The notes under the pieces were generated by a model that searched no databases, was not told the origin of the DNA, and worked only from the letters and a program-made list of their open reading frames with translations. A stretch of DNA of 64,000 nucleotides from Candidatus Peregrinibacteria bacterium. GTDB lineage: Bacteria > Patescibacteriota > Gracilibacteria > UBA1369 > JABINC01. The stretch spans positions 6,589 to 70,588 of the forward strand of contig JAUYJN010000029.1 of assembly GCA_030700255.1 (NCBI GenBank). Reading direction: 5' to 3'. The translations under genes and the position numbers were made by a program. How positions within the stretch are numbered: position 1 is the first letter of the stretch; each line of letters opens with the position of its first letter. This document shows, piece by piece, positions 5,879-26,883 of the stretch.

Positions 5879-6127
5879 ATGGAAAACACAAGTTTGATAG
5901 AAAATGCAAAAGTTAAAAACGTCCGGCCCATATCGGAATTACAAGAAAATCTTGATTTGATACGGCGTATTAAAGAAGGGAAAGAAGAGTTGTTTTCAGG
6001 TGATTTGTACGAGTTAGCTGAGTTGCAGGAACTTACAAACATGGCCTCTACGAACAGAGATGAAGATGTTTTAATTGCCGAGGAGGGTATGGAGGACTAT
6101 TTAAACTTGGTTGACAATGCCGCTTAA
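5879..6127 (+). CDS. small acidic hypothetical protein
   Basis: 82-aa ORF from ATG 5879; its 3' end overlaps the convergent metallopeptidase gene by 27 nt. Confidence 0.35.
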   Translation: MENTSLIENAKVKNVRPISELQENLDLIRRIKEGKEELFSGDLYELAELQELTNMASTNRDEDVLIAEEGMEDYLNLVDNAA

Positions 6128-8216: not shown

Positions 8217-8605
8217 TCTTTAGAAACAATGCGAAATCGTATGTCACGAATAGAACAATAATAATTTCATTATGGATAGAGCTGATAAGCAGATACCATC
8301 AAATTTCCCAAGAACTTGATACGAGAGAACAAATTAAACCCGGTGCGGAGCTTTATGGACGCGTACATTCTTTTATGCTGCGTTGGAATAATGTATATGG
8401 AAGTGATGCTCATCTTCATATCGATACTGTCGAGCAGGCTCGCGATGTCATAAATCTTTTCGCGGGCAAAACGCCGGAAAGGCGTCCGCATGACGAGATA
8501 GAAGATGAAAGAGAGAGGATTTTATGAATCCCAAGGTCGCTGATATTCATAAGGCTACTTGCGCCATAGAGTACGAAATCTAATCCCCAGAGATTTGCGC
8601 AGTAT

Positions 8606-10924
8606 TTATTGTTTTTCAGGCTCACGAGGTGTACGTTCATCATTTGCTTTATCAGTTGTAGATGCTTCAAATTGATCGGAATCATCACTTACATCTTCAT
8701 TTAAGGCACCTTCCAATTCATCTTGATCGATACCATGATTTTCGATCATACCACGGACAGTCGAAGGTATAGCCAAAATACCTTTTACCCCACCTCTTAC
8801 TCCATTTGCGACAGCTTTGAGTGTTCCTTTAGCGAGTTTGAAACCAAAATCAACTCCGGCTGCAACTCGAGGTCCGGTAGTGAGAAAACGTTTCATATAT
8901 GTGGTTTCAGCCCATTTCTTGCGTCTGAAATATCCAATTGTCATAAGTGGAAGTAGTATATAAAATCTAAATTTTTCCGACCAGCTATCTAAGAGTTCCT
9001 CACCTCTATCATGTCGTGTAGTCATGCCTAGATCTGGGTCAAGTTGTGGGTCAAACCAAAGGTCGGCGGCCTCTAGTGGGGCGAAAACTTTCATTAAAAA
9101 TCCATTGCCAACAGTTCCTGCGCCACCGAATATGAGAGTTCCTTTTGTAGAAAAAATATTTGCAGCAGCCCAAAAGCGACTTAGTTCTTCACCAGTATTA
9201 AATGCAGTAACCGCAGTCGCTTCAGTCGAGTCAACCATATTTAAGCCATTTTTCGCTTCCATCATTGCGGTGTAATCGATATAGCCTTTACCAAGTTCAA
9301 GTGGGAAGCCTACCCATGGTGATACATGTCTTGTAGAGTATGCTGCAACTTCATCTAGCGATGCATATTTATCACTCGTAGGTGTGGCTTTGAATTTCCC
9401 CCCAAGATTAGAAACGACCCATGTTTCAACTGCACCACGTATACTATCAGGATCTTTGCCCCAAGTTGCCTCTGCGATAGTTTTTCCATTTGGGCGCTTT
9501 TCAATAGATTCACGATTAGTTTGATACTCAAGAACCATTGTCTTAATAGTATCCGGATTTAGTTCAAGTAGTTCGAGCGTTAATGCTATATCTAGATTTT
9601 TTGCAGGGTCAAAATTACCCCACTCAATACCAGCTTCATAGGCTAATTTTGTATCACTACCATCAGGCAACCATGCGGTAGCTGCGTTGCGAGTCATTAA
9701 AGCTCTATTCCCTAAAATTTGCGTATTAAAATATGAAGCAGCCTCTTCAGGTGTCATATCAATCATTTTACTAAAAAATACTCCTAAACTATCAGGCTCT
9801 TGCTCGCAAAGATTGTATAAAACTTCTTTATATGGACGTATGTGAAGCATTTGCTTCATAAAAGCATTTCTAGTAGATTCACCTAAACCAGCTAGACCTT
9901 TTTCATTCCAATTCACAAGGATTTTTGAAAGTTCTTGCATCGTATCTCCATATAACTCAACTGCGCCACTACTGGCACTGCCGATGCCTTCAAAAATTCG
10001 TCCTATAAGTGGGGTGGGGTTTGCATCTTCCAATTCAGACGTTGTCATATTACCATCGTCATGAAATTTCTGCATTAACTCAAATAATTGTTTTCTAGGG
10101 TCTGTTTCGAGGGTGCCAAGTCTAAGGCCATCCAAATGTAAATCTTTAGCGGCTTTTTGATGATTTTTCTGAGCAAAGCCAAAATCAATATTTCGTATGC
10201 CTTGTTCAAGGTATTCTAGGGCTTTTACATACTTATTATACGCCTCTTTGTTTTCTGACGAGGAGTCGCTTGACACATATCCGTCACGAACACGTATCAC
10301 CATGTCAGCTAAAAGCTGTGAAAGTAGACCGGCATCCGACTCCATTACACTACCAGGCTTTTCAAATTCACTCATATCCCATTCTGGAGTATCTGGACCT
10401 AAAATCCACGTTGCATGACTTACGTCATAAAACCTCTCAAGCGCAGCTATTTGTTGGGCTGAATTAGGGGAATGGGCAATAGTCGCAATTAAATAAGCAG
10501 ATAAAGCCTGTAATGCTTCTTTTGTAACGCCAGGATTTTTAATATCGCTTCTAAATTTACCATTTCTAAATAAGTTTTCTATGTAAATTTCCGCCCAAAT
10601 TTGTAATAACTCTTCTTCTTTTGGAGTTATGACACCATCATCAGTTTTTAAGGCTTCTAAGCATGATCCTATTTTCTCAAATTCATCAAATGGACTAATG
10701 GAAAAAGCCTTTTCACCAATAGTTCTACGGATATCTTCTGTCACAGGTCCGGTTACATGATTATGTACGCCATCCGGATCTGTCAAACCACATTCACCTT
10801 TCATTCTAGCATCTGTATCAGAATATTCTTTGTCAGACATACCCCATACTGTTGCCCCAAGGCCAAGCATACCAGCTGCTAATAATGCTAATTTGCCACC
10901 GGATTGTGTAAGTTTCTTTGCCAT
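8606..10924 (-). CDS. large membrane-anchored protein of unknown function (772 aa); paralog of the N-terminal part of the 2069-aa protein
   Basis: N-terminal TM/signal anchor KLALLAAGMLGLGATVW; C-terminal hydrophobic FRFYILLPLMTIGYF; shared module with 11972..18181. Confidence 0.75.
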   Translation of the reverse strand: MAKKLTQSGGKLALLAAGMLGLGATVWGMSDKEYSDTDARMKGECGLTDPDGVHNHVTGPVTEDIRRTIGEKAFSISPFDEFEKIGSCLEALKTDDGVITPKEEELLQIWAEIYIENLFRNGKFRSDIKNPGVTKEALQALSAYLIATIAHSPNSAQQIAALERFYDVSHATWILGPDTPEWDMSEFEKPGSVMESDAGLLSQLLADMVIRVRDGYVSSDSSSENKEAYNKYVKALEYLEQGIRNIDFGFAQKNHQKAAKDLHLDGLRLGTLETDPRKQLFELMQKFHDDGNMTTSELEDANPTPLIGRIFEGIGSASSGAVELYGDTMQELSKILVNWNEKGLAGLGESTRNAFMKQMLHIRPYKEVLYNLCEQEPDSLGVFFSKMIDMTPEEAASYFNTQILGNRALMTRNAATAWLPDGSDTKLAYEAGIEWGNFDPAKNLDIALTLELLELNPDTIKTMVLEYQTNRESIEKRPNGKTIAEATWGKDPDSIRGAVETWVVSNLGGKFKATPTSDKYASLDEVAAYSTRHVSPWVGFPLELGKGYIDYTAMMEAKNGLNMVDSTEATAVTAFNTGEELSRFWAAANIFSTKGTLIFGGAGTVGNGFLMKVFAPLEAADLWFDPQLDPDLGMTTRHDRGEELLDSWSEKFRFYILLPLMTIGYFRRKKWAETTYMKRFLTTGPRVAAGVDFGFKLAKGTLKAVANGVRGGVKGILAIPSTVRGMIENHGIDQDELEGALNEDVSDDSDQFEASTTDKANDERTPREPEKQ

Positions 10925-10948
10925 AAATCCTATTTTATCGAGTACCTC

Positions 10949-10976
10949 ATATTAACTAAAAAAGACAAACTGTCAA
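10949..10976 (-). promoter_or_regulatory. candidate promoter for the 772-aa gene
   Basis: On the minus strand: TTGACA (10976-10971), 16-nt spacer, TAATAT (10954-10949); AGGA lies about 5 nt before the ATG. Confidence 0.5.
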
Positions 10977-11093
10977 GTCCTGATGAAGCAGCTACGGGTA
11001 ACTCGCCTTGAGAAATGGACGCTTATAATACAATTGTTCGAAGTGCCAGTCAAGGCTAAATGAATGAAGGTTAACTAAAAATATAGTAAAATT

Positions 11094-11113
11094 AACAGAT
11101 TTATTAATCTGTT
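11094..11113 (+). promoter_or_regulatory. perfect 7-6-7 inverted repeat immediately upstream of the start codon at 11120
   Basis: aacagat ttatta atctgtt, ending 6 nt before the ATG; possible operator or leader hairpin. Confidence 0.35.
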
Positions 11114-11119
11114 GAAAAT

Positions 11120-11947
11120 ATGAGTGAGACAATAGGAGAAGCAATAGGGGATTTCAAAGGCGCAAAAGATCGGGGTATATTCGGTGGGCTTTCATCTGTC
11201 TTAACTGTTTTGACACCAGATCATTGGAAGGGTGCTGCTAGTGGTGTAGCTGATGTCGCTTATAGAACTCCAAAAGCATTGGCATACAGTGGAGCGTATA
11301 AATCGATGAAAGATGAATTTTTCGCACCGGGGCCCAATTATAATGGTGTAATAGATGCAACTAGAGCGGAATTAGCTAATTTCCTCCCGGAAACATGGGG
11401 TGATGTGAAGTCGATTTTTGATACTGAGATTGTGAAAGATATTTTGAAGCCTTTTACTTACGGTGCAGGGCATGCATATTACAAAGTTTTACTTCCATTA
11501 CTTTCTACATTGAGGCATCCAGTACAGCTTACAGGGTACATTAGTGTCGTTGGAGGCCTTATCGGTATGATCCCAGCAATTGCTACTGGGACACTTTCAA
11601 TGGTGACACATTTGATACCTGATTTAATCAGCTTCCCACTTCATGCATTTGGGTCAATAAACAAAACTATTTCAGGGATATTAAGGCGTGGATTTGCAAT
11701 TGCAGAAAGCGTCGGGGCAAATATACCTATTTTTGGTAAGTTGAACAAAGCTACTACTGGTACATTTAGGCGCTTTTTTGCCGCTGCGGAAGCTATGAGT
11801 GAACAAGTGCTAGTTGGAAGTGACTTGGCGGAACGCGGTTTAAATAAAATGTTTGTACCAAGAGGATGGAGGGAGGGTAAGAGATCGGAACATCCATATA
11901 TTGCCAAATGGGGTCAAGGTATAGGTGGCGCATTGGCAACAAGTTAA
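11120..11947 (+). CDS. hypothetical membrane protein (275 aa), first gene of the plus-strand giant-gene operon
   Basis: Hydrophobic segments such as ISVVGGLIGMIPAIATGTLSMVTHLIPDLISF; 24-nt gap to the next gene. Confidence 0.65.
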   Translation: MSETIGEAIGDFKGAKDRGIFGGLSSVLTVLTPDHWKGAASGVADVAYRTPKALAYSGAYKSMKDEFFAPGPNYNGVIDATRAELANFLPETWGDVKSIFDTEIVKDILKPFTYGAGHAYYKVLLPLLSTLRHPVQLTGYISVVGGLIGMIPAIATGTLSMVTHLIPDLISFPLHAFGSINKTISGILRRGFAIAESVGANIPIFGKLNKATTGTFRRFFAAAEAMSEQVLVGSDLAERGLNKMFVPRGWREGKRSEHPYIAKWGQGIGGALATS

Positions 11948-11971
11948 ACATATATAATATAACTATGTCGA

Positions 11972-14900
11972 ATGGGAAATGAGTTCACACCAAGTTGGAG
12001 AGATGCAAGGTCAATCGGAGAGGCTTTCGTAGGTTCGGGTGTGGATTTCATGAAAGAGGCAATTGCTAAAAAGGCATTTAAACCGTTAGAAATCCTTGAA
12101 GCTTGTCGTGAGTATGGTCCAGAGTTAGCTAGGGACTCATTAACTGATATGGAAAATGAGCTTTATGAACGTGGATTGATATCTATCATAAAAGGAGTAG
12201 CTATGTTGACCGGCTCAAACCCGGATGCAGATGAGAGTGGCGATGTTAATATGGAGGAAGCAAGAAAATTTATACGTGAAATGCGAATGATAAATGGAGA
12301 GATTGCGAATGCGCTTATTTCTGGTGTACGTGCGGATATAATTCGAACGGCAGCGGTGGTTACTAGTAGAAAACAATTTGAAGGGCGTTTTAGAAAATTA
12401 TCAGATGGGGAATCTACAAGCAGTGAGGATGAAAAAGAATTTGAAGATTTCATACATACAAATATTGTTGATATTTCCTTGCCACCCATGAAAAGAGAAG
12501 ATTTTTTAACAGATGAAAAATTCGAAGAGTATGAGAAGGCACGTGTATATATGGAAGCATTTGGAAACTACGCAGTGGATGTTCTCAAGGATTATAGTAA
12601 ACAAAAAGTTACGCTCAAGGATGGTACGAAAACTACAAAGGCTAAGCTTGTGATTAGAGCTTTGGGCAATATGTACGAAGTTACGGAGGGTTGGTTAGGC
12701 CCAGATTTGGGTGAGTTGCATAGAGATGAAGTGACTGAGGAATCCGATCCTGTTATTTTAGCGGAATTCAGCGCTGACATAGCTATTTCTATAACTAAAT
12801 CTGTTAAATCAAAAGAAGGAGCAACTGTTGATGATTTATCTGCAGTTTTTGAAGGGATTCAAAGTGCGTTCATCATTTCGGGATTTGGCATTGGGAATAA
12901 ACCTACTATGTTAAATAGTATAAATGAAATCTTTACACTTGTAACAGCTAATGGTGTAGAGGGTATAGATTTATATGGGAAGGGGAGGAATGCAATTGGA
13001 TTATTGGCTGCTCAAGCAAATGATGAGTTATTAGATTTGGCTGATCACGAAGAACAGGGAGTACTTGGTAAAATGTTCGATGGAGTTGCTATGGTTGCAG
13101 GCTTAACAAAATATTTAATTTTCGATATAGGAATAGGAACTTTATTTAAGGTTGCTGGTGTCCTTGCTAGAGGGGATGGGCTAGAAGGACTTGTTAAAGA
13201 ATTAGGGCAGCCGGTAGTAGATAAAATAAAGCGTTTCTTCGCAAAAGGTTTGTTACTTTCACATTCAACGGATGAAGTTTTGGATGGTCTTGCTGAAAAT
13301 GATTATAGAATTAAGGGTTTTGTTAGCAGGATGTTAACTATGGCTCCCAAACAAGCCGGTAGTGAATTTGATGAAATGTTAAAAGATGAAAGTATAATAA
13401 GTAAAAATGTTTCAGATGTATGGCTCACAGATGGTGGAGTGTTGTCATTAGTGATTAGTGCAGCCAACTTAAAGTCAGATAAAGATTTAAAAGAAATATT
13501 TACAATAGGATTTACATTTTGGGTGCTCGATCTCAAGGGTGAAGATATAACAGAATTAGTCACAGAATATCAAAAAAACCCTTCAGCCTACAATAGGCCT
13601 TTGAATGGTAAGAACCTTGCTCAATCAATGTGGGAAGCGGAGAGTAAATGGGAGTCTAAAGATGGGAGTGACAAAAGTGCATCGTGGGAATCTGATGTAA
13701 GGAATAATGCTACCAGTTTCATGACTGAAAAAGTTGACGAAGAAATGCCATATAGAACAATGTGGCAGACTTTGAAACAAGGTTCTTATGAGTCATTGAT
13801 ATTAGCTCCTTTGCTTATGCAAGGTATACTTGGTGGTGGTAGGGAGGGGCTTAGGGGTTTCGCACGCAACTCATCAGGTCTACTGGTTGCTTTAGATTTG
13901 GTAACTGATCTTAGGAAATATTACTATGACCATATAGAAAGAGAAAAGCTAAAAAACCCTAATTCTGGAGCTGGTCTTTGGGATAGAACGGGTGGCTTCT
14001 TAGTGGAAGAGGGGCCTGAGATTTTGCAAAATAGAGGTCAAGAGTTAATTCACCAATTATGGACTATGCATTTGATAGGTAAAGGTTTACCAGAAAGCAA
14101 ATTTATAGATTTTTTAAAAAAACTTGGCTTTAAAGCTTTAAAGCCTGGAAAATGGATTATAAATAAATTACCACTTAGTACGGGTAAAGCGGTTACTACA
14201 GGGGTCGAATGGGGTGGGGCTAAGATTGCCGGTTTAACAGTAAAGCTGGCTGGCCCAGCTTCAATTTTCTTCGGTGTTAGAATTATTTGGAGAGATGCCA
14301 TATTAGATTTGGAATATGATCCGGTAACAGGGAAATGGGAACCAAGTGGGGAAATCAATCTAACTGGTAGAGGGGCTGCGGCAATAGCAGGGCTTCTTCA
14401 AATCGCATTTGGATGGGGTATGTGTGCAGATTGGGTTGCCTCTAAAGCTGATAGTCATGGTGTGGATTGGGCAGGTAAAGATTCTAAGTTTTATAGAGTT
14501 TCAAAATATCCAAGTAGCAAGTTAGCCATAAAAACACCTGAGAAGGCTGCAGATAAGGCATATAAATCAAGAGGACTTGGAAGGACGAGCTTTGTATTAA
14601 ATGAAGCTAGTGGCGTATTTCTAGGTGAAACTAGTGGTTTTGAAGGGTCTCCTGTGGCAAGGGCGGATAAAATAGATTCTGTAATTATACAGCCAAAGGA
14701 TGGTAATCCAAAGGCAAAATCAGGGAGAGTTATAATCATAGAAGAGGTGACGGTAATGGATGGAGATGGGAGTATAACTGGTAGAGGAGCTAGAGCGGGG
14801 ATAGAGGCTGAACATATAATAATAAGTGACGTAAAAGAGCCTCAGCCAAATTTTATTGACAGAAAAATTCTTGGTCGAAAAAAAGTTACAACATGGGGGG

Positions 14901-17900
14901 TGACGACTACCCATAAATTGGTTCTTTCAGATGGAAGGGTCGTTGATTGTAGCAATATTAATGGACTGGGAACTACAACTGAAGTTGTATATAGCAATCC
15001 CATGGAAGAGGCTGAAAAGTTAAAAAAAGAGATTGCTGAGAGAAAGTTGGAGATAAGTGCTAAAGCTAAAAAAGCTGAGGATGGAAAGTCAAGTGGTACG
15101 GTAGAAGAAAAAAAACCATTAGAAACTAAGGAGTTTAAGAGTCAGTATAGGGAGCAGAAACTAACATACAGCTCAGCCTCTTCAAGGGGTAAAACAACGG
15201 AAACTTTTAAACTAATTGATAAAATAGGAAGCAATACGAATACAAGAATTGTAGAGGTCATAACTGATACTACAAAAACACCAACTGAATATACATTGAA
15301 GTATACTGATCAAAGTGGCAATGTATCCAGAAGGGTTTACAATACAGAGTTACCACCTGCTATTAATAACTCGATAGATAATTTTGAGGTAAGTCGTAAG
15401 GGTGTTTTAGAGATTAATTCTACCTTAGATGCATTGGAAGTGGGTGGATTAAAAGCTGATCATCCAGTAACAAGGTTTTTAGAATTAGATACTCAGGTGA
15501 GTACGGAACTATCTTCTCCTCCTAGAGGTGGAAGGGGCGGTGGCACTAGAGGCGGAGGCGGAGGCGGAGGCGGTATGCCACGTAGCTCATTGGATCCGAT
15601 TGCAGATATAGGTGGATTGACGCCACCACGACGCACGGGAATCCCAATTGGACGTATATCAGTTGGAATGAATAGTGTCGGTGTTTTAGAATCACCAATG
15701 GCTTTTTTCGACTCTCCAAGTGAGATTTTCAAACAAGATATGGAATTGGCGAAGAGATTTATAAGGAAAGTATATGGAGAAATAGTGGATGCATCTGGAA
15801 TTGAAAGATTGATGCAACATTTAGAAAAAAACAAAGGTCCGGTACTGAGTGCATACGCAAAAGAATTTGAGGCCGTAAAGGCTTTGGATTGGGCGGAAGC
15901 TAAGACACGCCTTCGGGCAGCGCAGCTGAGTATGCGAATGGAGACGATATTTAGTATTTTGATGGTTGTAGGGATCATGGTTTCGGCATACGAGGCTAAG
16001 CAATTTAAAAAAAATGCTGCAAGTGATACTGGATTTGAATTCGCAATGGTTATGGCTGGGGCTCTGCCGTCTGGTTTGGGAGGTGCAATGTTAGGAGCTA
16101 GAGCTTTTGCGGGTTTTGGACCTGTTGGTTCAGTTGTTGGAGCCCTTGCCTTTGGTTTTGCCGGTGCATGGCTTGGTGGCGATATGGCGCATAACGCAGC
16201 ATTAACTATGGAACAGCAATTTCCTTACCTTGCACGTGATTTAGGTAAAATATCACAAGTGTTTTTACAAGGGGGTGGGTTGGCAAATCTAGTGATTGAT
16301 GGTATCAAAAAAACAGATGGCACATATGGTTCATTCATAGCTGGTGAAACAGTTGGTTTCGGAGAGAGCAGTCGAACTATAAGTGATGTGACCGGTGGCA
16401 GGGTGCCTTTAGATTGGCATTTGCCGGATTTATCTAAATTAGAGGTTAGTTCTATTCATGTGAATGATGCACCATGGTGGGATAAAAACGATGAATATGG
16501 ATATTATCGAAGGTTAAAGGATTCTGAATTACCAGCAGCTCTAAGAGAAATGTATTCGGCAAAAGCTGACGCAATGAGGCATCCTAGTGATTCTTTTCAT
16601 AAAAAGTATGAAAAGAAAAAAGCTATATATGATATAAAAAAGGCTGAATTTGACACTCTGGAGAAGGCCATAGTAGAAATCGAAGCTGGGATTGACCCTA
16701 CAGAGACAGTCTTTGCAAGGAAATATCTTGAGAGAGAGGCGGTTCTTGCGCAGGGCAGGGAGGTTTTGCAAGATTTCACCAGAGCAAACTTGCGAGCATG
16801 TGAATTTCCTGAACGCGTTGTTGATACAGCAGGTTTAGCATTAGATAGGTTGCCAGAAGGTCCTGAAGGTTGGATGTTAGCTGGTGGAATAAAGAGGGAG
16901 ATTAATTTAATTCATGCAATTGAAGATGAGCTTGTTGACAATAGAGATTATTTTAAATTTGGAGCATTGAAGGAGACTTTGGCTGACGTATATGACGATT
17001 TGGAATCATTTTATGATAAGTATAATAATGTAGCTGATAGGGTTGCGAGTGATTTAGAGGGGGATATAGATAGGCTACGAGAAGCCAACTATGATGCATG
17101 GGATAATCTTGTAGATGTACGTCGTAATGGGGGAGGGAGAGGGTACTTTGATCAGAGATCTGCGTTAAAAGATGCGGAAAAGGCCTATGAAGAATCGGGC
17201 GAGTTACTTGAAAAAGCGAATAAGAATTTAAAAGATGTTTACAATCCTAACTCTGAATATGCAAAAAATCATGAGGAGCTCGGTGAAATGGCTATTGCTA
17301 TAGTAGAGCTAGAAAAACAAATTGATGATGAGCAGAAAGCTACGGTAACTTCCGTTGCAGAAATGAGGGCTAAGTTCAATAAAGCTAAATCTTTGTATGG
17401 TACTTCAGATAAAGGTGAAATACTAAATAATACTGATGACTTATATAAGGAGGCCTTGGTGCGAACTGCTCATACTTATATGCAACAACCGGAACTAAGA
17501 CCTGACAAAATAACATTTACTGAAACGGAAGCAAGGATGCTTATGAGGCTTGAAGATGCTGAAATGGTTGAGGCGAAATATTTCGAAGCGAACCGTGATT
17601 TATGTTTGCTTACGGCGCCATATATTACTAAAGATGAATTCTGGTTTGGATTAAATGACAAAGAAGCTTATAGGGATTCAATTGAGTTACATGCGTTGAA
17701 TACATTTGAAGATAAAGGAACTTTTGACCCAAAGCCAGGATATCAAGCGGAGGATTCATTTATCTATGGTCATAGATCGGGGATAGATGATTATGAAACA
17801 GATGATCTTAAAGTGACTGAGAGAGCTGGTTATAAAATCTTGGATGAAATGACAAAAAATATTCCTGGAGAAGAAAATAGAAAACAAGCGAAGAGGGCGT

Positions 17901-18181: not shown

Positions 18182-18218
18182 CAGAGATAGAAACATATAA
18201 ATATTAAATAAAAAATAA

Positions 18219-18479
18219 ATGAACGATCTACAAAACATCAATAAGGAATTTACACGGCTATTAAGTACTTCTGTAATGAGTGCTGACGATAAAGAAAGTA
18301 TCCTCAAGAAGATGGAGGGTAACGCTATGGATCAGGAAGAATTTGCAAATTTGTATCTGTATTTAGTGTCAGAGGAGGAGGTGAGAAAAGCTAATTTACC
18401 TAATGCCATGATTAAATTAGGTCATTTGCAAGGGAAAATGATCGCATCAGAGGTAAAGCAATTTAGAAATAGAAATTAA
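18219..18479 (+). CDS. small helical hypothetical protein (86 aa)
   Basis: ORF packed between the 2069-aa gene (37-nt gap) and the SLT gene (11-nt gap). Confidence 0.5.
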   Translation: MNDLQNINKEFTRLLSTSVMSADDKESILKKMEGNAMDQEEFANLYLYLVSEEEVRKANLPNAMIKLGHLQGKMIASEVKQFRNRN

Positions 18480-18490
18480 GAATAATATAA

Positions 18491-21400
18491 ATGAGATCAA
18501 AAAATGAACAAGCTGAATCGGGGCAAGGCATAGATAATACACCTATTGATACTATAGTGCCTGCGAATGGCCATGTCGATATGGCGGTAGATCCAATGGC
18601 GGAACTAGAAGCTCTTGATCGTGATGTAAAGAAATCTGATGAAAGGGTTGCGGCATGGTATGATTTTCTTGTGCCTGACAATTCAGCACTTCCAAAATCA
18701 ATTGAGAAGAAAATAGATGCAGCTTTACCACCTTCGATAGTGTTGGAAAATATATATGCCCCAGAGATGTTAGCAGACAAAGATGCTTTGAAAGCTTCCT
18801 CCGTAGGTTTGAAGGACGCTGCTAGGGTAAGCCAAAAATCAAGTTATTCGCAGTTTGAGACTTATAAGAACCCGCAGACAATTATTGAGAGACTTGGGCA
18901 GGAGCGATTATCTTTTATTAAATATTTAAGTGAGACATCTGGTATACCTGCCGCAGTAATTGCCTCAATTATGGTGATAGAATCAGGCGGTAATCCTAAC
19001 CTAATGTCATATGGAGGTGCCGCTGGTAGGTTTCAACATGTCAAAGCAACGGCACGTTCTATGAAAGTTGGTGGTGGAAGAGAGGTAGTAACGTATAGAG
19101 CGGGGGAGGTTGATGACAAAAGGAAGGTTGTGCAAGTAGGATCCAAAGATTATACGATAGGCAGGGAGGGTGATTATAAAGATTCAGAGGGGAAGTATTA
19201 TCCGGTAGAAGATGGGCGGTTTGGATTTGAGCATTGGGCAGGGACGGTGAATATACTTTATGGATGTTATAAAGCCGCAGGGGACTCATGGTTAGAAGCT
19301 CCTCGACATTACCATGGTGACGAAGGCCCTGTTGAAAGATATATTGCACAATTTGCATATGTTGTACAAGGAGCATCAGATATTAATTGGAGCTTACTTC
19401 CGGCATACCAGCCTAAGCATGAAGTTCACGAAGTTAAAGAACCAATTAATTTATATGATCTTTTGTATTCAGATGAAGAATATTCTATATTAGATTTCGT
19501 AGATGATTCGGATCCAAATGCCTCACTTAATAACCAATTAAGTTTATTCAGAGTGCCATTAGGGGCTTTAAGTTCTGATTTGAAAATTCCAGAAGATAAT
19601 GTGAATAAATATTTTTTATCCAGAAAGTTAGAAAAACGTTTGATTTTATCAGATCATTGGGTTGGTTACGACGATTCATCTTTTTTTGAAATAATAGTTG
19701 GTAACGAAAAAGGTCCAACAGGTTTTTACCATCAGGCTAAAAATGGTGTTGGTGCGACTGATGTATATACGAAAAATTCAGATGGCACTGTAACAATTAA
19801 CCGCGACGCATTTAGATATGATCAGGCAGATATAGATGCATGGAGGGGAGTTGGTGACTTCTACGATGAAGAAACTTCAGTTGATCCGGAGTTCACATGG
19901 CAAAGACGTGGAGTGAATCATCCACCAACAATCGATGACCTTCGACGTTCGGGAATATCTTTTCGAGAGATTATTCAGTTAAATCCTGATGTGTTTGGCG
20001 TAGGACAGGGCGGGGTAACCACTATGGATCCGGCTATAAAGCGATATTTGCAAACAACATATTTAAGACCCGGATATTTATTGGAAATTAAAGTTGGTAA
20101 AGCCAAAGGGACAAAAGGTGGGACGGAAAAGATGGAGCAAGCAAAGAAAGGTCCAACGGAGGGAGAGATATTAGCCGATCGAAATACAGATAGTGAGGTA
20201 AAGGGCTACATAGCAAAATCAATGTTTAAGAAAAAGAAAGAAGGAGATCGTGTGTATCATATGATAAGACTTGCATCAGAATTGAATTCATTCGTAATGA
20301 AATACCATATCGATTCAGCGACGAAAACTCTTTTGGAAGAAACTGTTGAATATTGTCGGAACCTTTCTAGCGATCAGGATTTACTTACAACTTTAGCTAG
20401 TAATCCATCATTAATGAGATCTTGGTTAGATCTTTTTTTATACAAAAATGTCGAAGAGATGATGAGTAGAAAAAGTGAGCTTACTGTTGATGAGGTTGAA
20501 TTTTTTATGATGACCGTTAAGGTTTACCAAGGGCTTATAGGTAATTACAAGTCAGCATTCAAATTACTTCCAAGTTTTTGGAAACAATATAAGCAGATGA
20601 TAGCTTGGCATGGTGAGCTTGTGAAAATTGAGGGAGATAAACAAGGTACGCAAGCGAAAATTGATGAAGCTAAAGCTGCTAAAAGGTATGCTGATATAGC
20701 TGCAATAAAATTACGTGAAAGTTATCGAGAGGCAAATGAGATAGTTGTAGTTCAAACCCTACTTAATGATGAAGATGTGAAAAAAGAAATTGGCTTATTG
20801 GAAACAAGAGAATTTGCAAATCAGGCACTTGTTAAAATACAAGAAGAACTGAAGAAATTCTCAGCTATTGGTCTATCAGCTTCTGTGAAGGAAATAGTAG
20901 AAGTGGGTGATGGGAGTCCAACAGGCGAAATCAGTATTCCCATTGAAATCACCGATCAAACATCAAAAACTGGTAAATCGATGATTGCAAAAGCAACTTT
21001 CAATAAAAAGAATGGGTTGAAGAAATTTGATTTGTACTCCATGGTTCCATCTGAAGGGTTTGACTTAGATTCAATGTATACGGAGCGGTACGATGAAGGG
21101 TCAAATGCACAATTGGAACGTATTGATGTTGAAAATATAAATGACATGTTATTTGGGTATTTGATGTATAGATTGGTGCATACTCCTGAGAAGAAAAAAC
21201 AATCTACGGAGAGTGGTTTAAGGGAAGGTATGGTGGAGTATGGAGGTAGTACAAAATATAAAATATTTACAACAGAATATAATTCAAGTGTGTACGTTGG
21301 TCTTATTAACCCCTCAACAATTACTACATTTAATTCTGAAGAATATGTAGGGGCATTCTATATTAATGTCTATGAATCTCTTGATGATGATGCGGAGATG

Positions 21401-21622
21401 GATGGTAATTTTATCACTTTGACAACAAAAAGATGGGAAGTAGTTGATGGCAAAATGGTAAGAGCTTCAGACGCTGAAGGGAAGCGATTGCCTGAAATTG
21501 TATTAGGGCGATTTAAATCGGTTGATGATTTAATAATGGCAATTAATAGTGCGAATATAATTGATGGATATTCCACTGAAAATAAAAAAGATTTTATAAA
21601 AAGGCCAATCGTAACTAAATAG
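18491..21622 (+). CDS. SLT-domain lytic transglycosylase fused to about 750 aa of unknown function (1043 aa), with no signal peptide
   Basis: GIPAAVIASIMVIESGGNPNLMSYGGAAGRFQH fits the family-1 SLT E-S ... G-(L/R)-(M/F)-Q pattern; catalytic Glu codon at 18980-18982. Confidence 0.8.
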   Translation: MRSKNEQAESGQGIDNTPIDTIVPANGHVDMAVDPMAELEALDRDVKKSDERVAAWYDFLVPDNSALPKSIEKKIDAALPPSIVLENIYAPEMLADKDALKASSVGLKDAARVSQKSSYSQFETYKNPQTIIERLGQERLSFIKYLSETSGIPAAVIASIMVIESGGNPNLMSYGGAAGRFQHVKATARSMKVGGGREVVTYRAGEVDDKRKVVQVGSKDYTIGREGDYKDSEGKYYPVEDGRFGFEHWAGTVNILYGCYKAAGDSWLEAPRHYHGDEGPVERYIAQFAYVVQGASDINWSLLPAYQPKHEVHEVKEPINLYDLLYSDEEYSILDFVDDSDPNASLNNQLSLFRVPLGALSSDLKIPEDNVNKYFLSRKLEKRLILSDHWVGYDDSSFFEIIVGNEKGPTGFYHQAKNGVGATDVYTKNSDGTVTINRDAFRYDQADIDAWRGVGDFYDEETSVDPEFTWQRRGVNHPPTIDDLRRSGISFREIIQLNPDVFGVGQGGVTTMDPAIKRYLQTTYLRPGYLLEIKVGKAKGTKGGTEKMEQAKKGPTEGEILADRNTDSEVKGYIAKSMFKKKKEGDRVYHMIRLASELNSFVMKYHIDSATKTLLEETVEYCRNLSSDQDLLTTLASNPSLMRSWLDLFLYKNVEEMMSRKSELTVDEVEFFMMTVKVYQGLIGNYKSAFKLLPSFWKQYKQMIAWHGELVKIEGDKQGTQAKIDEAKAAKRYADIAAIKLRESYREANEIVVVQTLLNDEDVKKEIGLLETREFANQALVKIQEELKKFSAIGLSASVKEIVEVGDGSPTGEISIPIEITDQTSKTGKSMIAKATFNKKNGLKKFDLYSMVPSEGFDLDSMYTERYDEGSNAQLERIDVENINDMLFGYLMYRLVHTPEKKKQSTESGLREGMVEYGGSTKYKIFTTEYNSSVYVGLINPSTITTFNSEEYVGAFYINVYESLDDDAEMDGNFITLTTKRWEVVDGKMVRASDAEGKRLPEIVLGRFKSVDDLIMAINSANIIDGYSTENKKDFIKRPIVTK

Positions 21623-21654
21623 AATTGGGTATCTCAAGGTATCTAACTATATAG

Positions 21655-22254
21655 TTAGCCTCTACCCTTATCCCCATCTCTGTCTTCATCAGCTGGTGGT
21701 TTTGGCTTTTCTTTCTTTTTGCCTTTCTTTGGATCTTCTTTCTTTGGATCTTCTTTCTTCAAAACATCACCCGGATAAAAACCATCTAAAAGATTCACAA
21801 CTGTACGTGCTTCATCTACATTCCTAATTTGTACATCAAGAGTATCAGATTTTGGGAAAAGACCATTCCACCAGTGCATAAATGCTTCTAGAGAAATTGA
21901 CAACGCATCCATCGGATTATTAAGGTTTATTTTAGGATCAATAGCTCCATTTATATCAAGTCTTCGCAGCTTTTGAATAACAGCCATGATATTTTCAGGG
22001 GTTGCTGAGTTCAAAAACAAAGCAATTTGTATGGTATTCGCATCTGTGATACGTGTTGTATCAATTGTTATATTTGGGACTTGATCAGTGAGTAAAGCTA
22101 GTCTATCTTCATTTAAATGAAGATCATTTCTAAATGCTTCTAACTCCATGATAGGGTCGATAGTCATGTCTACCGAATTATCAGAATTGTTTTGACCTTC
22201 TAACTCAGATGCCAACTCCATCCCTGTTTTGAATTGTTTATCTCCTTCTGACAT
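21655..22254 (-). CDS. hypothetical protein (199 aa) with a conserved N-terminal motif and a Lys-rich tail
   Basis: N-terminal VDMTIDPIMELEAFRNDLHLNEDRLA; C-terminal KKEDPKKEDPKKGKKKEKPKPP. Confidence 0.6.
   Translation of the reverse strand: MSEGDKQFKTGMELASELEGQNNSDNSVDMTIDPIMELEAFRNDLHLNEDRLALLTDQVPNITIDTTRITDANTIQIALFLNSATPENIMAVIQKLRRLDINGAIDPKINLNNPMDALSISLEAFMHWWNGLFPKSDTLDVQIRNVDEARTVVNLLDGFYPGDVLKKEDPKKEDPKKGKKKEKPKPPADEDRDGDKGRG
21727..21756 (-). repeat. perfect 2 x 15-bp tandem repeat (encodes KKEDP KKEDP)
   Basis: ctttggatcttcttt repeated head-to-tail on the plus strand. Confidence 0.9.
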
Positions 22255-22269
22255 ATTTGATATGTTAAT

Positions 22270-25200
22270 TTAAGGTAATGTATTCAAAGTAGTAATCAGC
22301 CGTGAACCAATAAGATTAGAATTCAAGTTGCGTACAAAAGCATTTTCCATATTTGTATTGAGTGTTTCTAATAGCACATCTCCAGCACCGGCAGTTCCCA
22401 AAGTATTCACTACACTTGGAGCAGTATTTGTTGCAATGAACTGATCAATATAAATTGCCGCCTCGCTTTTAAAATTATTGACACCACGTCGTGGATCAGG
22501 GAAAGCAAGAGCTCCCGCTAGTCCCGGTGGGTAAAGTCCGACAGCATCAAGCGTCCTCCAAACTATGTCATAATGTTCGAAATCAAATACTCTAGCTAAA
22601 GATCCTCGTAATAGTGGCAATTCAAGGCTACCCCAACTGCCTTTGGTTGCATCATATTTACCAGCACTATCTAGGGGTAGGCTAGGTGGTGTTCCAGCTA
22701 TTAACCTTGTGTCTAAAGTCCCCCAATTATGATATTGGAAACCAAATGGCTGCCATTTGATTTTTGAAAGTAATGGGGCTGTAACGAGATCTGTATGTTG
22801 TAGCCACATGCGTTGCACATCATATACTGTATTAACAAAATCAAATCTCATTCGATCATTAGTATTGGCATTTATATATTCATCAAATGTTGGCCATTCA
22901 TAAGAGCCTTGCCCTAATGTTACGTCACCTCCGGAAGTTCGGATCGTATCACGACTAGGTTGCTGAGATTCATCGACAGTAATTGATCTTTCAAGGGACT
23001 GTACATCAGCTGTATCAATTTGGGCAAACATTCCCCCCATCTTGGCTTTATTAAAATGAGTTGTCATTTTCTCTACATAATAATGTAGGAATTTTTGTGC
23101 ATTTGCTTTATCAGTCGGGTTTCCATTGGTTAAAACATCCATAGCAGTACGACCGGTTCTATCTTTTTTTAATGCTTGTTTTTGAAATAAGTCCATCAAA
23201 TCTCTAAATGCTTCAGGTTCAAAATCATAAAATCTCTCCATACGTGATTTAAAATAGCTGTATTCAGCAATAAATTCATCTGGGTATCCCAAGGTTTCAA
23301 GTTCAAGTGCAAAATTATCAAATGTGCTGTTGTCGACCTCCTTATTAAGTGCGATGTCTCTTTGTACCTTTTCTTCAAATTTCGCTAATTCAATCAGCAC
23401 ATCATTTAGATTACTTAGTTGTGATTGACTCATATCTCCGCTTTCTATTTGTTGGATAAGTAAATCGCGACGTGTAGTAAGAAGATTTGTCCATTCCTCT
23501 TCACTTACAGAACCGCCATTTTTGAAATCTTTGAAGTATTTCCATGGGAATTTAAGTGGGAATAAATTTTTGAACCATCTTTCATTCATCTCACTCGCAA
23601 GACTTATCATGTTGTCAAACCTAGTATTTACAACATCAGTAAGTACATCTCTCCATGCATTCTCTTTTTCTGAAGTCGTATAACCTTTAACATCAAATGT
23701 GAATACTAACTCAGAATTAGCTCCGGCCCATCCGCTAGATGTGGAAGCTACCTTATCTCTAGATGCCGCATCACGTACTTCAATACCTTGTTGAGGTGTA
23801 CCTCCTGTAACATCAGTGAATTCACCTTTGAATGTAACAGTTCTACTAGTTCCACGTGTCACAATACCATTAATTGAAGTAGCTGTACCATCTTTGATTT
23901 GTGACCAGTTTTCTATTTCAATATCATCGGTTGCAAATGGAAAATGATAAGAACGCAATATCCATGATTTGAAATTATCCTTTTCTATTTTTTCAGTTAA
24001 TTTGGTTAGAGAACCAGCTGTATCAAGAGCTGCCTTCTCTTTATCCCAATATTTATCATTTTGATAAAATCTAATACCAAAGGTAGCCTTATCCAAAGGC
24101 CCATATGGTTTTATATATATATTATGGAAACTAGTAGGGATTGTTAGGGTATGTTTCATATCATCAGCATTAATCTCAATCGGCTTCGGCTCAACCTTAA
24201 ATCCTGGTACCATCCATTTCATCTCTGATTGATTCCATTCAAGTGTCTTTGAAGCTTGGTGATAGAAATCCTCCATAAGCTTCTTGTCCTCAGCATTGTC
24301 TTTTATCTGAGGCATAGTTTTGAGAGCAGTATCACGTACAAGCCCTTTTGCAAATCCCATGATTTCTTCAGGATTATTTTCACCAAAGTGGAAAATCTTT
24401 TCAGATCCATCTACATTATAAAATACAAAACCATCTATTCGCTCTCCAGGCTTGTAATCTTGTACCTTTGTACCATATAAAAATCTTACTTTTGTCATTA
24501 CTCCACCTGGAAGTGTGACGATATTTTCAGTTTTATTCGGCATTCCTATATCAAACCCATAGTCTGCACTAGGCAGGATTTCCCTCAAATAATTAACTAA
24601 TCTATATTTATTACCACCTATCCAATTACCTATATATCCATGCAATCTATCAATAACTTTACCTCCAAGTGAAGTAGCTCCATCAAATCCATGTCCAAAC
24701 ATATTTGCTAAATAATAAAAAGGTTGTTTCTGTGCACGCGAATCATTATTTACAGAAACCAAAAGTTTAGTTACCTCAAGCATAGTCATCCCAGCTAAAG
24801 CGACAATGCCTTTATCATTCTCATATTCATCGATAAATTTACCATATCTTCTGTCAAACATAGCCATGGCTTCATAAAACGCCTGATCATTATCCATTCC
24901 CTCTATAAGATTAGGATTCAGAACCCCAGGAATATTTAATTTTTTTGGTTTCGCACTAGACTTTTTAACTTGCTGGTATCTGTCCCACAATTCCATAAAA
25001 GGAATATCCTTGGTTACACCAATAAGTATCTCAAAATTCTCAATTTCTTTTTCATTTGTAGCATAATCAGAGAAAATTCTTCTTAGATTATCATCTAATC
25101 TATGTGCATCCATACTTGTTAATTTTTCTACTTCTTCAATTGGACTTTTTCCGGTTAAGGCTTTGACCCATAAATCACCTCCATACACTCCATAAATTCC

Positions 25201-26883
25201 AAGACCTCCATATATCATAGCCTTTCTAAAGGCTCCCATTTTCGGATTTTTACTTGTAAGAACCCATCCAAGTACGCCAATACCTGCAACAAGTGCGGCA
25301 ATACCTTTGTTTGGGTCTTTTGCAAAGGCAGTTTCAACACCATATCTTATCCTTCTAAGTTTTCCTTTTATTTGACGTCCAATATGCTGCCTTGGTCGCA
25401 TCTCTCGTCTTTCATCAACTGCTCCAAGTACAGATTCACCAAGTTGCATTTGAATACGTACTTTTTCTTGTAAAGTTTTAACTGTAAGTGCTATGTGTGC
25501 CAACTCATCGGCAGCTTGCATCAATTCAGCTTCAGTTGGCATGTTCTGCGCATGACCTTTTAAAACTTCATTTTGCATGAATTTAAGGTCAAATTTATTT
25601 GGATCATAGTTGGCTGCATTAAGCAAAGCTTGAGTAGTTAACCCTGTTCCATGGAAATTTTTATCTTGTAATTGCACAATAAGTCTTTGTTCTTGCGCCG
25701 AAAGGTTCTCAGATTGCACTGCCAATTGAAAAACACGCCTATCTATTGCTGCTAATCTGTCAGTAGATAGTCTAGTTTTATCTACAGGCCCACCATTATC
25801 AAAATATGGCTTTAATTCTTGTAAATATGTAAGTGCATCTTTAAGTTTTTGTTCGTCAGGTGTTAGAAATGCTTGAGCTTTGAGGCCTTCAAGTTCTCTG
25901 AATAGCCCTGATGTCATCCCACGAGGTGAATTAAAAAGAAGGCTATACACTTCAATCATATGTTCATCATTCGATGTATACGCTGTGATATTTGTTTCTA
26001 GAGTAGTCTTTCGTACAATAATGGCATCTAGCTCAGTTTGAATCGTTGGTTTGTCGGAAGCCTCTGCAGCGGTTAATTTGTCCTTTAATTCTTGTTCGCT
26101 TTTTAATACTGAACCCATCTCTGCCGTTGCATCACTTTTAGCTTGTTTTTTAGCTGTTAAAGCTTGGTATTCAGCTTTAAGAGTATCAAAAGTAGCTTGG
26201 CCATTGGTTGGATCTTTATCTAATAAGTAATCTTTGAGATCTTTTTTCTTTGTACCTCTAGATTCTTCAGTTCTATCATCATTTGCAGTAAAAGGACCAA
26301 CGATTTGTAGATCTCTAAGTGCGAAAAGTAATTCTTCTTTTTCCTTTTGTTCTAGTTCCGATCCAAGGAATTTTCCAGTAAGTGCCCCTGAGAATTCATC
26401 TTCAAGTTCTTTGAAAACTAGATTTAAGTCTTCCGTCATACGGCTACCATTCTGAATAAGCTTCAAGGTTCGAAGTAAAAGATTTTGGTAAGTGCTTAAC
26501 TCTGCTTCTCGTGACAGTTGTCTAACGAGGAATTGAGCAACATCTTTAGGATTCATAGCTTGCTTTGCAGAAAGCTTTTCATTGCCGGCCCAAGTAAGCA
26601 AGCCGTTATAGCTATAAGAAAAGTTTTTAGAACCAATTGATTCCCCATATTTGTCAGCAGCAGATTCTATAGAGCCACGATCTTGACCGTCCATATGAGA
26701 AATAGCTCTTCCACCTGGACTGTACGGAGTATGGTCATCATGTACTTCATTACCTGTGCCTGCAGCAAACCAAACCCTCTTCCCAAACTCTCTCTCAAAT
26801 TCAAAAGAGCCGGTATGAGATAGGCGGCCTGATCTATCGAAACCGTCTTCGAACGCCGAATTTTGGAATATTTTTGGTGTCAT
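22270..26883 (-). CDS. giant protein of unknown function (1537 aa) with a central glycine-zipper TM pair
   Basis: Uninterrupted 4.6-kb ORF; TM pair GIAALVAGIGVLGWVLTS / AMIYGGLGIYGVYGGDLWV at residues 527-573; helical N-terminal about 500 aa. Confidence 0.85.
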   Translation of the reverse strand: MTPKIFQNSAFEDGFDRSGRLSHTGSFEFEREFGKRVWFAAGTGNEVHDDHTPYSPGGRAISHMDGQDRGSIESAADKYGESIGSKNFSYSYNGLLTWAGNEKLSAKQAMNPKDVAQFLVRQLSREAELSTYQNLLLRTLKLIQNGSRMTEDLNLVFKELEDEFSGALTGKFLGSELEQKEKEELLFALRDLQIVGPFTANDDRTEESRGTKKKDLKDYLLDKDPTNGQATFDTLKAEYQALTAKKQAKSDATAEMGSVLKSEQELKDKLTAAEASDKPTIQTELDAIIVRKTTLETNITAYTSNDEHMIEVYSLLFNSPRGMTSGLFRELEGLKAQAFLTPDEQKLKDALTYLQELKPYFDNGGPVDKTRLSTDRLAAIDRRVFQLAVQSENLSAQEQRLIVQLQDKNFHGTGLTTQALLNAANYDPNKFDLKFMQNEVLKGHAQNMPTEAELMQAADELAHIALTVKTLQEKVRIQMQLGESVLGAVDERREMRPRQHIGRQIKGKLRRIRYGVETAFAKDPNKGIAALVAGIGVLGWVLTSKNPKMGAFRKAMIYGGLGIYGVYGGDLWVKALTGKSPIEEVEKLTSMDAHRLDDNLRRIFSDYATNEKEIENFEILIGVTKDIPFMELWDRYQQVKKSSAKPKKLNIPGVLNPNLIEGMDNDQAFYEAMAMFDRRYGKFIDEYENDKGIVALAGMTMLEVTKLLVSVNNDSRAQKQPFYYLANMFGHGFDGATSLGGKVIDRLHGYIGNWIGGNKYRLVNYLREILPSADYGFDIGMPNKTENIVTLPGGVMTKVRFLYGTKVQDYKPGERIDGFVFYNVDGSEKIFHFGENNPEEIMGFAKGLVRDTALKTMPQIKDNAEDKKLMEDFYHQASKTLEWNQSEMKWMVPGFKVEPKPIEINADDMKHTLTIPTSFHNIYIKPYGPLDKATFGIRFYQNDKYWDKEKAALDTAGSLTKLTEKIEKDNFKSWILRSYHFPFATDDIEIENWSQIKDGTATSINGIVTRGTSRTVTFKGEFTDVTGGTPQQGIEVRDAASRDKVASTSSGWAGANSELVFTFDVKGYTTSEKENAWRDVLTDVVNTRFDNMISLASEMNERWFKNLFPLKFPWKYFKDFKNGGSVSEEEWTNLLTTRRDLLIQQIESGDMSQSQLSNLNDVLIELAKFEEKVQRDIALNKEVDNSTFDNFALELETLGYPDEFIAEYSYFKSRMERFYDFEPEAFRDLMDLFQKQALKKDRTGRTAMDVLTNGNPTDKANAQKFLHYYVEKMTTHFNKAKMGGMFAQIDTADVQSLERSITVDESQQPSRDTIRTSGGDVTLGQGSYEWPTFDEYINANTNDRMRFDFVNTVYDVQRMWLQHTDLVTAPLLSKIKWQPFGFQYHNWGTLDTRLIAGTPPSLPLDSAGKYDATKGSWGSLELPLLRGSLARVFDFEHYDIVWRTLDAVGLYPPGLAGALAFPDPRRGVNNFKSEAAIYIDQFIATNTAPSVVNTLGTAGAGDVLLETLNTNMENAFVRNLNSNLIGSRLITTLNTLP

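Follow-up and report, generated by a model that had tools for sequence, protein, structure and literature searches.

What is the function of a cluster of adjoining genes that encode giant membrane proteins together with a single wall-cutting enzyme? Positions 8606-26883 of the 64,000-nt stretch of contig JAUYJN010000029.1 analysed here (the window) carry such a cluster, seven genes which encode 5,981 aa in total and occupy 18,278 nt, i.e. 28.6% of the window. The initial annotation, made from the letters alone, had proposed a dedicated envelope machine of a small-genome organism. The organism is an uncultured, ultra-small bacterium from the candidate phyla radiation (CPR), of Peregrinibacteria type, in agreement with the latter point, and for CPR bacteria a life on other cells is assumed. 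We tentatively read the cluster as a lineage-specific membrane- and wall-breaching cell-surface or contact module of a narrow Peregrinibacteria-type clade, presumed to be episymbiotic. The idea of a dedicated envelope machine, a reasonable inference, is strengthened by synteny and sharpened by rapid, cassette-like diversification. The genes, named after the lengths of their products, are arranged as follows:

8606-10924, minus strand: g772, 772 aa
10925-11119: divergent intergenic region of 195 nt between g772 and the g275 operon, with promoter-like hexamers on both strands
11120-11947, plus strand: g275, 275 aa, opening the plus-strand operon
11972-18181, plus strand: g2069 (the giant), 2069 aa
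18219-18479, plus strand: g86, 86 aa, between the giant and the SLT gene
18491-21622, plus strand: g1043 (the SLT protein), 1043 aa
21655-22254, minus strand: g199, 199 aa
22270-26883, minus strand: g1537, 1537 aa

The lengths, strands and spacings (gaps of 24, 37, 11 and 15 nt) in the list of open reading frames (ORFs) correspond exactly to the layout that had been claimed. All seven ORFs start with ATG and end with TAA or TAG. With a per-codon stop probability of 0.068, as calculated from the base composition of the window, stop-free runs of 772-2069 codons are expected by chance with probabilities of 1e-23 to 1e-63, and the same products result from independent gene calls on 100% identical DNA in GCA_034376305.1 (contig JAXMJY010000046.1) and in two Logan assemblies. 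The promoter-like hexamers in the divergent intergenic region are consensus matches only, showing no enrichment over shuffles, and the leaders of the seven genes are A/T-rich without an obvious Shine-Dalgarno sequence. A code with UGA as sense codon is known from Gracilibacteria. Such a code finds no support here, as in-frame TGA codons are absent from ORFs as long as 2069 codons and TGA is the stop of two genes; the stops of the 40 large ORFs of the window are TAA (29), TAG (9) and TGA (2).

When the seven proteins were searched against Pfam, the sole match was PF01464 (SLT) at residues 143-193 of g1043. Additional matches in PHROGs, NCBIfam and PADLOC were SLT-type only and fell on the same stretch, and phmmer and profile searches of the PDB gave weak EmtA/MltC matches on the SLT motif and nothing further, bearing out the claim that SLT is the only recognisable domain. 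Walker A, HExxH and LPxTG motifs are lacking in all seven proteins and no ATPase profile matched, so the cluster is devoid of a recognisable ATPase, as had been stated. Pfam revealed neither adhesion domains nor SLH domains in the cluster, and a BLAST self-comparison revealed no internal repeats. Profile matches to tape-measure or tail proteins, to integrative and conjugative elements (ICEs) or type IV secretion systems (T4SSs), or to RHS proteins, any of which would have spoken against an undescribed system, were looked for and did not appear. Likewise, tblastn queries with the 1043-, 1537- and 2069-aa proteins matched nothing in the records of 50,697 phages and 72,556 plasmids, and scans of IMG/VR viral contigs yielded no relatives of the cluster.

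For an exhaustive HMMER search of 1.84 billion representative proteins, the 772-aa protein and the first 900 residues of the giant were aligned and made into a profile; the search returned five non-self relatives only, of 763, 834 and 179 aa (772-like) and of 2514 and 2545 aa (giant-like). Scans of metagenome contigs with the g772-family and giant-family alignments gave no match, not even in the sample from the Joint Genome Institute (JGI) that holds the second haplotype described below. In a relative, 'Candidatus Peregrinibacteria bacterium SI060_bin36', NCBI labels all cluster proteins 'hypothetical protein'. By the measure of these searches the seven genes are true orphans apart from the SLT domain.

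The Pfam match of g1043 scores 23.9 bits against a cut-off of 21.3 (E 3.3e-5; nt 18917-19069) and is part of a divergent SLT/lysozyme-like domain comprising residues ~135-285 (nt 18893-19345), with the catalytic Glu164 at nt 18980-18982. The motifs I-E-[ST]-G, G..G.[FH]QH and [KH]Y[NH]G do not vary between g1043, r1142 and a548, three members of the family. Taken alone, r1142 and a548 have no Pfam match at E 0.05, only g1043 being significant by itself; the profile of the three sequences matches MltC (9vi7) with an E of 0.0067, the third motif being aligned too. Family-1 lytic transglycosylases (LTs; PF01464, E. coli EmtA/MltC type) share the E-S, G-x-x-Q and Y-N-G motifs with g1043, which is thus predicted to be a family-1 LT, divergent but motif-complete. 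Between motifs II and III there is a conserved insertion of ~40 residues, GRxGDYxDxE..YYPxEDGR, and the SLT domain is followed by a C-terminal region of ~750 aa without known domain. Both features set g1043 apart from these LTs and from the specialised LTs of transport machines (VirB1, monoderm TraG/PrgK/TcpG, flagellar FlgJ, T7 gp16), as does the lack of a CHAP, NlpC, LytM or LysM partner and of a neighbouring virB4.

The initial annotation had described g1043 as an enzyme without Sec signal, and hydropathy scans agree with this: the N-termini of g1043 and r1142 are acidic and contain no hydrophobic segment, nor does any other part of g1043. The SLT-like 548-aa paralogue of a third lineage (Logan SRR22387965) has an N-terminal transmembrane (TM) anchor. 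Having no hydrophobic N-terminus, g1043 needs a non-Sec route if it acts on peptidoglycan, and we infer such a route by analogy with FlgJ, T7 gp16 and the muralytic effectors of T4SSs and type VI secretion systems. FlgJ and gp16 resemble g1043 in lacking a Sec-type N-terminal signal or anchor. A further point in common is that g1043 is a very large multidomain protein encoded among genes for membrane proteins.

g772 carries an N-terminal anchor or signal (residues 12-30, nt 10835-10891), followed by a large all-alpha domain and, at the C-terminus, weakly hydrophobic helices. Two Cys residues after the anchor (C45, C88) are invariant, and this arrangement suggests that the domain is extracytoplasmic. 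Homologues are P0004, P0005 and P0006. Residues 159-488 of g772 (nt 9461-10450) are homologous to residues 228-554 of the giant (nt 12653-13633) with 25% identity and an E of 4e-16, and a global alignment suggests that the whole of g772 corresponds to the first ~870 residues of the giant. On the basis of these alignments g772 is a paralogue of the N-terminal module of the giant, which can be divided into five parts:

11972-14581, plus strand: g772-like module, residues 1-~870
14459-15511, plus strand: beta-rich middle region, residues ~830-1180
15518-15580, plus strand: Gly/Arg linker, residues ~1183-1203
15926-16189, plus strand: hydrophobic, glycine-zipper-like region, residues 1319-1406
16190-18178, plus strand: helical C-terminal region of ~660 aa

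P0007 (2514 aa) and P0008 (2545 aa) are homologues of the giant over its entire length. Its hydrophobic segments, called by crude hydropathy and by conservation across homologues, lie at residues ~64-82 (weak), 609-627, 801-822, 1319-1337 and 1378-1406, and all are conserved in the homologues. By the same means conserved hydrophobic segments were found in four of the seven cluster proteins, among them the 772-, 2069- and 1537-aa products for which TM segments had been claimed. The Gly/Arg linker is encoded in part by a GAGGCG repeat of 4.2 copies (15549-15573, residues ~1193-1201 of the giant), and in the relatives its position is taken by a linker of ~300 residues rich in Pro, Lys and Arg. 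A paralogy between the g1537 and giant families was rejected since hhalign found them unrelated.

g1537 is the best-conserved member of the cluster, with 34% identity to r1480 over 1510 aa. Its N-terminal part of ~520 aa is rich in coiled coils; a hydrophobic hairpin follows (residues 527-575, nt 25159-25305; 527-545 plus a weaker segment 553-575), and the C-terminal ~960 aa are mixed alpha/beta, with a further hydrophobic segment at residues 693-711. g275 is a small membrane protein with a hydrophobic segment at residues ~141-166 and two amphipathic FGxxNKxxxGxxRRxFAxxE repeats, and it is 38-40% identical to r331 and a317. g86 is small and helical, has no TM segment and shares 35% identity with r90; in the relatives a 90-aa gene occupies the same position between the giant and the SLT gene.

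All seven genes have positional counterparts in SI060_bin36, where the order is 331(+), 2545(+), 90(+), 1142(+), 541(-), 1480(-) and the g772 homologue is located 3 kb upstream of the g275-like/giant block. The neighbours in SI060_bin36 match those in the window apart from small insertions:

Left side: L27, a 254-aa gene, the g772-like gene (834 aa, minus strand), Fer2, AbiEii, a 205-aa gene, a 240-aa gene (minus strand)
Right side: tig, an 82-aa gene, HTH, L19, RNase HII, pyruvyl transferase, PfkB, RmlD, IF-2

The same cluster gene order is present on a JGI contig, and in the third lineage genes for the giant N-terminus and for g275-like, SLT-like (548 aa) and g772-like proteins stand side by side. 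Synteny in relatives had been named as a decisive check; the order is conserved and the genes are intact, with no pseudogenisation, which favours a real functional unit. In codon usage the large cluster genes correlate at r = 0.90-0.93 with core genes such as tig, IF-2, ClpB and RuvB, as well as core genes do among themselves. Genes for integrase, relaxase, capsid, portal or terminase are absent from the window, and no tRNA or att-like border was seen at the cluster, the sole tRNA of the window being located at 53.9 kb. Judged by its core-like codon usage and by the same site on the tig side in SI060_bin36, the cluster is native, has been passed on vertically and is neither prophage nor plasmid nor ICE, in keeping with the earlier view that it is chromosomal rather than freshly acquired.

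Between the window and SI060_bin36 the identity of 14 conserved flanking proteins is 49-82%, two HNH and metallopeptidase-like genes being lower. The corresponding identities of the cluster proteins are:

g772 36%, g275 38%, giant ~24-26%, g86 35%
g1043 26%, g199 36% (half its length), g1537 34%

By these protein identities the cluster diverges two to three times faster than its neighbours. A comparison of strains gave a similar picture on a finer scale. The 1480-aa protein is 100% identical on three contigs (NCBI, ENA and a 93-kb JGI contig), and most flanking genes have equal lengths and positions on the NCBI, ENA and JGI contigs, but beside the 1480-aa gene the JGI contig has genes for 551, 1187, 90 and 2514 aa in place of 541, 1142, 90 and 2545 aa. 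The giants of the two strains (2514 vs 2545 aa) are only 37% identical and diverge along their whole length; the best-conserved part of the two alleles, P0007 and P0008, is the central linker (66-75%), which was unexpected. In residues 1-150 the g275-like protein is the same in both strains and beyond them it differs, the signature of a recombination breakpoint. Both haplotypes are present in one JGI sample. This pattern of protein identities indicates an exchangeable, hypervariable cassette. It starts in the 3' part of g275, includes the genes for the giant, the small protein and the SLT protein and ends with the g199-like gene, with conserved sequence on either side (the 5' part of g275 and g1537). 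A diversity-generating retroelement was rejected as its source: the window contains no reverse transcriptase, and the alleles differ throughout and not in A-specific variable repeats.

Within the cassette, g1043 and g199 share an N-terminal motif, VDMxxDPxxELEA, at residues 25-58 of g1043 (nt 18563-18664) and 24-57 of g199 (nt 22084-22185), with 38% identity over 34 aa and a score that was reached by none of 2000 shuffles. The initial annotation had regarded this motif as a shared leader. This holds for the pair in the window genome; as a family-wide leader of SLT and g199-like proteins it was rejected, being significant in the window genome only, with a weak version in the SLT protein of SI060_bin36 and none in the 541-aa counterpart of g199. 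As only residues 72-163 of g199 align to the relatives' 541/551-aa protein, in its middle, and as the motif before them is that of g1043 from the same genome, g199 gives the impression of a mosaic produced by recombination and not of a protein bearing a general export signal. At the 3' end of g199 (21723-21759) a perfect 15-nt tandem repeat of 2.5 copies encodes C-terminal KKEDP repeats. Two independent Logan assemblies both end inside this repeat, at window position 21752, which suggests copy-number heterogeneity or an assembly break.

How might the parts act together in a contact module? Seated in the cytoplasmic membrane, the giant, g772, g1537 and g275 would make up a scaffold whose soluble domains are very large. 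Either this scaffold or a dispersed T4SS would deliver g1043 to the wall, perhaps with g86 as an adaptor, and g1043 would cut peptidoglycan locally. Its target would be either the cell's own wall, so that the large ectodomains can pass, or, where contact is made, that of a partner or host. The cassette, if under diversifying selection, would be a specificity determinant exposed to partner, host or phage.

Several observations weigh against this proposal. No fold could be assigned: the AlphaFold2 model of the g772 family (5 sequences) is all-alpha with a pLDDT of 45, only residues ~340-480 reaching 70-87, and that of g1537 residues 580-1537 (2 sequences) is mixed alpha/beta with a pLDDT of 38. 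A Foldseek search of the PDB with the g772 model gave no match at E <= 0.001, producing noise only (TM <= 0.13). As judged by Pfam, BLAST and the motif search, the cluster lacks adhesion-type repeats, sorting signals and an energy source. The probable two-helix hairpin of g1537, if unaccompanied by a signal peptide, could leave both large domains of this protein in the cytoplasm. Fast divergence alone could mean relaxed constraint and not an arms race, and the replacement of the cassette is seen at the protein level only, from gene tables and protein identities.

A possible, though unlikely, alternative is that the cluster forms the diverged outer part and the substrates of a Patescibacteria T4SS, with g1043 as a VirB1-like hydrolase or a muralytic effector delivered by the T4SS against a host, the giants as VirB6/VirB8-like translocon and surface parts, and TraC/VirB4-like and VirD4-like ATPases providing the power. 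To the left of the window the contig of the same metagenome-assembled genome carries genes for 23S and 5S rRNA, for a TraC-like protein of 236 aa, for a member of the PrgI family (E 7.6e-13), for LepA and for an M23 peptidase, PrgI lying 12.6 kb to the left of g772. The TraC-like and PrgI-family genes directly follow the rRNA genes, i.e. T4SS remnants stand beside the rRNA operon, and the same arrangement is found ~9 kb from the cluster in SI060_bin36. A VirD4/TrwB-like ATPase is encoded at 61747-63945 on the minus strand, 35 kb to the right of the cluster. Patescibacteria T4SSs reportedly resemble monoderm conjugation systems; in the class Gracilibacteria their genes are dispersed, VirB6 homologues are lacking or escape detection ('extreme sequence divergence'), virB4 usually has no VirB1 homologue beside it, and in Southlakia a peptidase and a lysozyme adjoining virB4 are essential for epibiotic growth (PMC12102498). 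The host phylum of the cluster is that of a T4SS reported to be essential for the epibiotic growth of Ca. Southlakia epibionticum, with dispersed T4SS genes in or beside the window, and such a system needs a wall hydrolase and polytopic parts of the kind that sequence searches miss in Gracilibacteria (PMC12102498). In addition, an SLT enzyme without signal or anchor needs a dedicated exporter.

These points make a T4SS link of the cluster plausible, but the proteins themselves give no sign of it. Profiles of VirB1, VirB6, VirB8, PrgH, PrgK, PrgL, TrbL and VirB3/PrgI did not match any of the seven proteins (Pfam/NCBIfam, E <= 0.1), ten relatives of the cluster proteins had no T4SS Pfam match at E <= 0.05, and the cluster contains neither a VirB4-family ATPase nor a VirB2-like pilin array. 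With 1043-2069 aa its large proteins are far above the sizes of VirB1, VirB6 and VirB8. LepA, M23, L27, a toxin-antitoxin pair and an rRNA operon separate the PrgI/TraC-like pair from the cluster, the synteny of the whole region explains the proximity, and the 730-aa gene beside PrgI in the relative is not homologous to the VirD4-like gene of the window.

Equally in the range of the unlikely is a more far-reaching form of the envelope-machine idea. In it the giants and the g772 paralogue would serve as conduit or anchor that deploys the signal-less g1043 onto the partner wall, the cassette would set the specificity, and the whole would be an undescribed, clade-specific machine unrelated in sequence to type I-XI secretion systems, either self-contained or hijacking orphaned T4SS ATPases.

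We consider it rather improbable that the proteins are a scaffold of the cell's own envelope for wall remodelling, division or surface-layer anchoring, with the SLT enzyme as a space-making autolysin and no role between cells. LTs are classic space-making autolysins, the cluster occupies a native, conserved site among housekeeping genes, g1537 may be largely cytoplasmic, and the window also encodes SLH proteins, M23, PG_binding and sortase. Housekeeping envelope proteins, however, are normally widespread and slow-evolving, whereas only five relatives were found among 1.84 billion proteins; the two- to threefold faster divergence than that of the neighbours and the swapping of the cassette between otherwise near-identical strains likewise speak against this explanation.

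The replacement of alleles between co-occurring strains would also suit a polymorphic effector or toxin cassette, in which the giant and/or the SLT protein are secreted antagonists, g86 and g199 are chaperones or immunity proteins, and strains exchange the set as in contact-dependent competition. The muralytic domain without N-terminal signal or anchor, the small ORF embedded among large genes and the mosaic g199, which suggests recombination, fit this as well, and there is reported precedent in Sec-independent peptidoglycan-degrading effectors of bacteria-killing T4SSs (PMC6536674, PMC8740702). Such a role is nevertheless doubtful to a high degree. Pfam, PHROGs, NCBIfam, PADLOC and the motif search revealed no RHS/YD, PAAR, VgrG, XVIPCD, WXG, LXG or known toxin domain, the giant diverges throughout and not at a C-terminal tip, its central linker being best conserved, several conserved hydrophobic segments in the giants are untypical of secreted toxins, and g86 lacks the signal peptide that immunity against a wall hydrolase would need.

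T7 gp14, gp15 and gp16 form a trans-envelope conduit; gp14 has 196 aa, gp15 747 aa and gp16 1318 aa with an N-terminal SLT domain. The cluster resembles this ejectosome in that small, ~750-aa and >1000-aa proteins (199, 772 and 1043 aa) occur together, with the SLT domain near an N-terminus and no Sec signal. Unlike the T7 genes, the cluster genes lie on both strands, are chromosomal and syntenic and are not accompanied by virion genes. The T7 ejectosome was rejected as a match because the SLT motif is the only shared sequence: hhalign aligned gp16 at this motif only (E 0.07), and gp15 did not align with g772. A remnant of a mobile element or prophage, be it a T7-like internal-core set or an ICE transfer module, is hence largely refuted and barely conceivable, since the PHROG matches 'lytic tail protein' and 'internal virion protein with endolysin domain' fall on the SLT stretch only and, despite AbiEii, Fic and HNH genes to the left, the cluster has no phage, plasmid or IMG/VR relatives, no mobile-element genes or boundary, native codon usage and the same chromosomal site in a relative whose flanking proteins are only 49-82% identical.

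Among known kinds of proteins the nearest to the cluster, viewed as a contact module, are the CPR giant envelope proteins and the specialised LTs. Vampirococcus lugosii, whose lineage is sister to that of the cluster (the latter being sister to Absconditabacteria and Gracilibacteria), has ten giant membrane proteins of 1392-4163 aa that were proposed to act in host recognition and attachment (PMC8080830), and Giant1-5 of Apilactobacillus kunkeei are reported as clustered giant surface proteins of a symbiont (PMC12863079). These giants and the cluster proteins are alike in being large, membrane-associated and clustered, in taking up a large share of a small genome and in having a proposed role towards a partner. 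The known giants carry recognisable interaction or adhesion domains (WD40, PKD, DUF11, integrin, fibronectin), whereas the cluster proteins have none of these and no repeats. Moreover, the cluster giants are polytopic, with several conserved hydrophobic segments. They stand in an operon with an LT, an arrangement that has not been reported for those of V. lugosii (PMC8080830). Giant repeat adhesins are characterised by tandem Ig, PKD, FN3 or cadherin repeats, a Sec signal and a sorting or S-layer anchor, whereas in the cluster only g772 has an N-terminal anchor or signal.

The surroundings of the cluster contain further features. A possible eighth, loosely linked gene is located on the left side:

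6101-6736, minus strand: metallopeptidase-like gene with signal peptide and HELGH motif

Its metallopeptidase matches are weak (Peptidase_Mx1, E 0.001). The orthologue in SI060_bin36 (240 aa, 33% identity) lies directly upstream of the g275-like gene, and by this identity the gene diverges as fast as the cluster genes. The translation of 8273-8518 (plus strand), between a lipoprotein-like gene (7779-8216) and g772, has 66% identity (82 aa) with the C-terminus encoded by a 357-aa gene beside the g772-like gene of the SRR22387965 lineage; having no intact ORF, it is probably a gene remnant. The block 2809-5719 comprises an AbiEii toxin gene, its overlapping 205-aa partner, a Fer2 ferredoxin gene and a Fic/DOC gene with HTH. 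Of these, AbiEii, its partner and Fer2 recur in synteny in the relative, with 64-73% conservation, and Fic is present in the window only. The HNH-endonuclease genes at 121-1257 and 30009-30965 (both plus strand) are paralogues with 41% identity (E 2e-96). The second one lies between the HTH gene and L19, where the relative has no such gene, suggesting a mobile homing-type insertion.

On the right side, next to the VirD4-like gene, are genes for a protein in which PG_binding_1 occurs three times (60123-61691) and for an SLH-bearing M23 peptidase (57781-60087), all on the minus strand, and this group (57781-63945) could be a further wall-modifying or secretion-related set. Genes for an SLH surface protein (48107-50341) and a sortase (54050-54664), the latter just downstream of a 498-aa ice-binding-like PF11999 protein (54655-56151), are found on the minus strand between 48107 and 56151. 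The SLH, sortase and PF11999 genes point to an elaborate surface of monoderm type.

In summary, what is new at the level of sequence is the paralogy of g772 and the giant, the fast divergence of the cluster relative to its neighbours, the replacement of a cassette between strains and the presence of dispersed T4SS genes nearby. To our knowledge almost nothing is known about the contact molecules of CPR bacteria outside Saccharibacteria, and on the branch of Gracilibacteria, Absconditabacteria and Peregrinibacteria sequence searches miss even core membrane components of the T4SS. The locus, being ordered, native, large in relation to the genome, equipped with a predicted wall-cutting enzyme and subject to exchange between strains, is a concrete candidate for a contact or wall-breaching device, and it is a defined target for metatranscriptomics, metaproteomics, cryo-electron tomography and heterologous enzymology. 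Should the proteins instead be a scaffold of the cell's own envelope, they would still represent six new protein families confined to one CPR clade.

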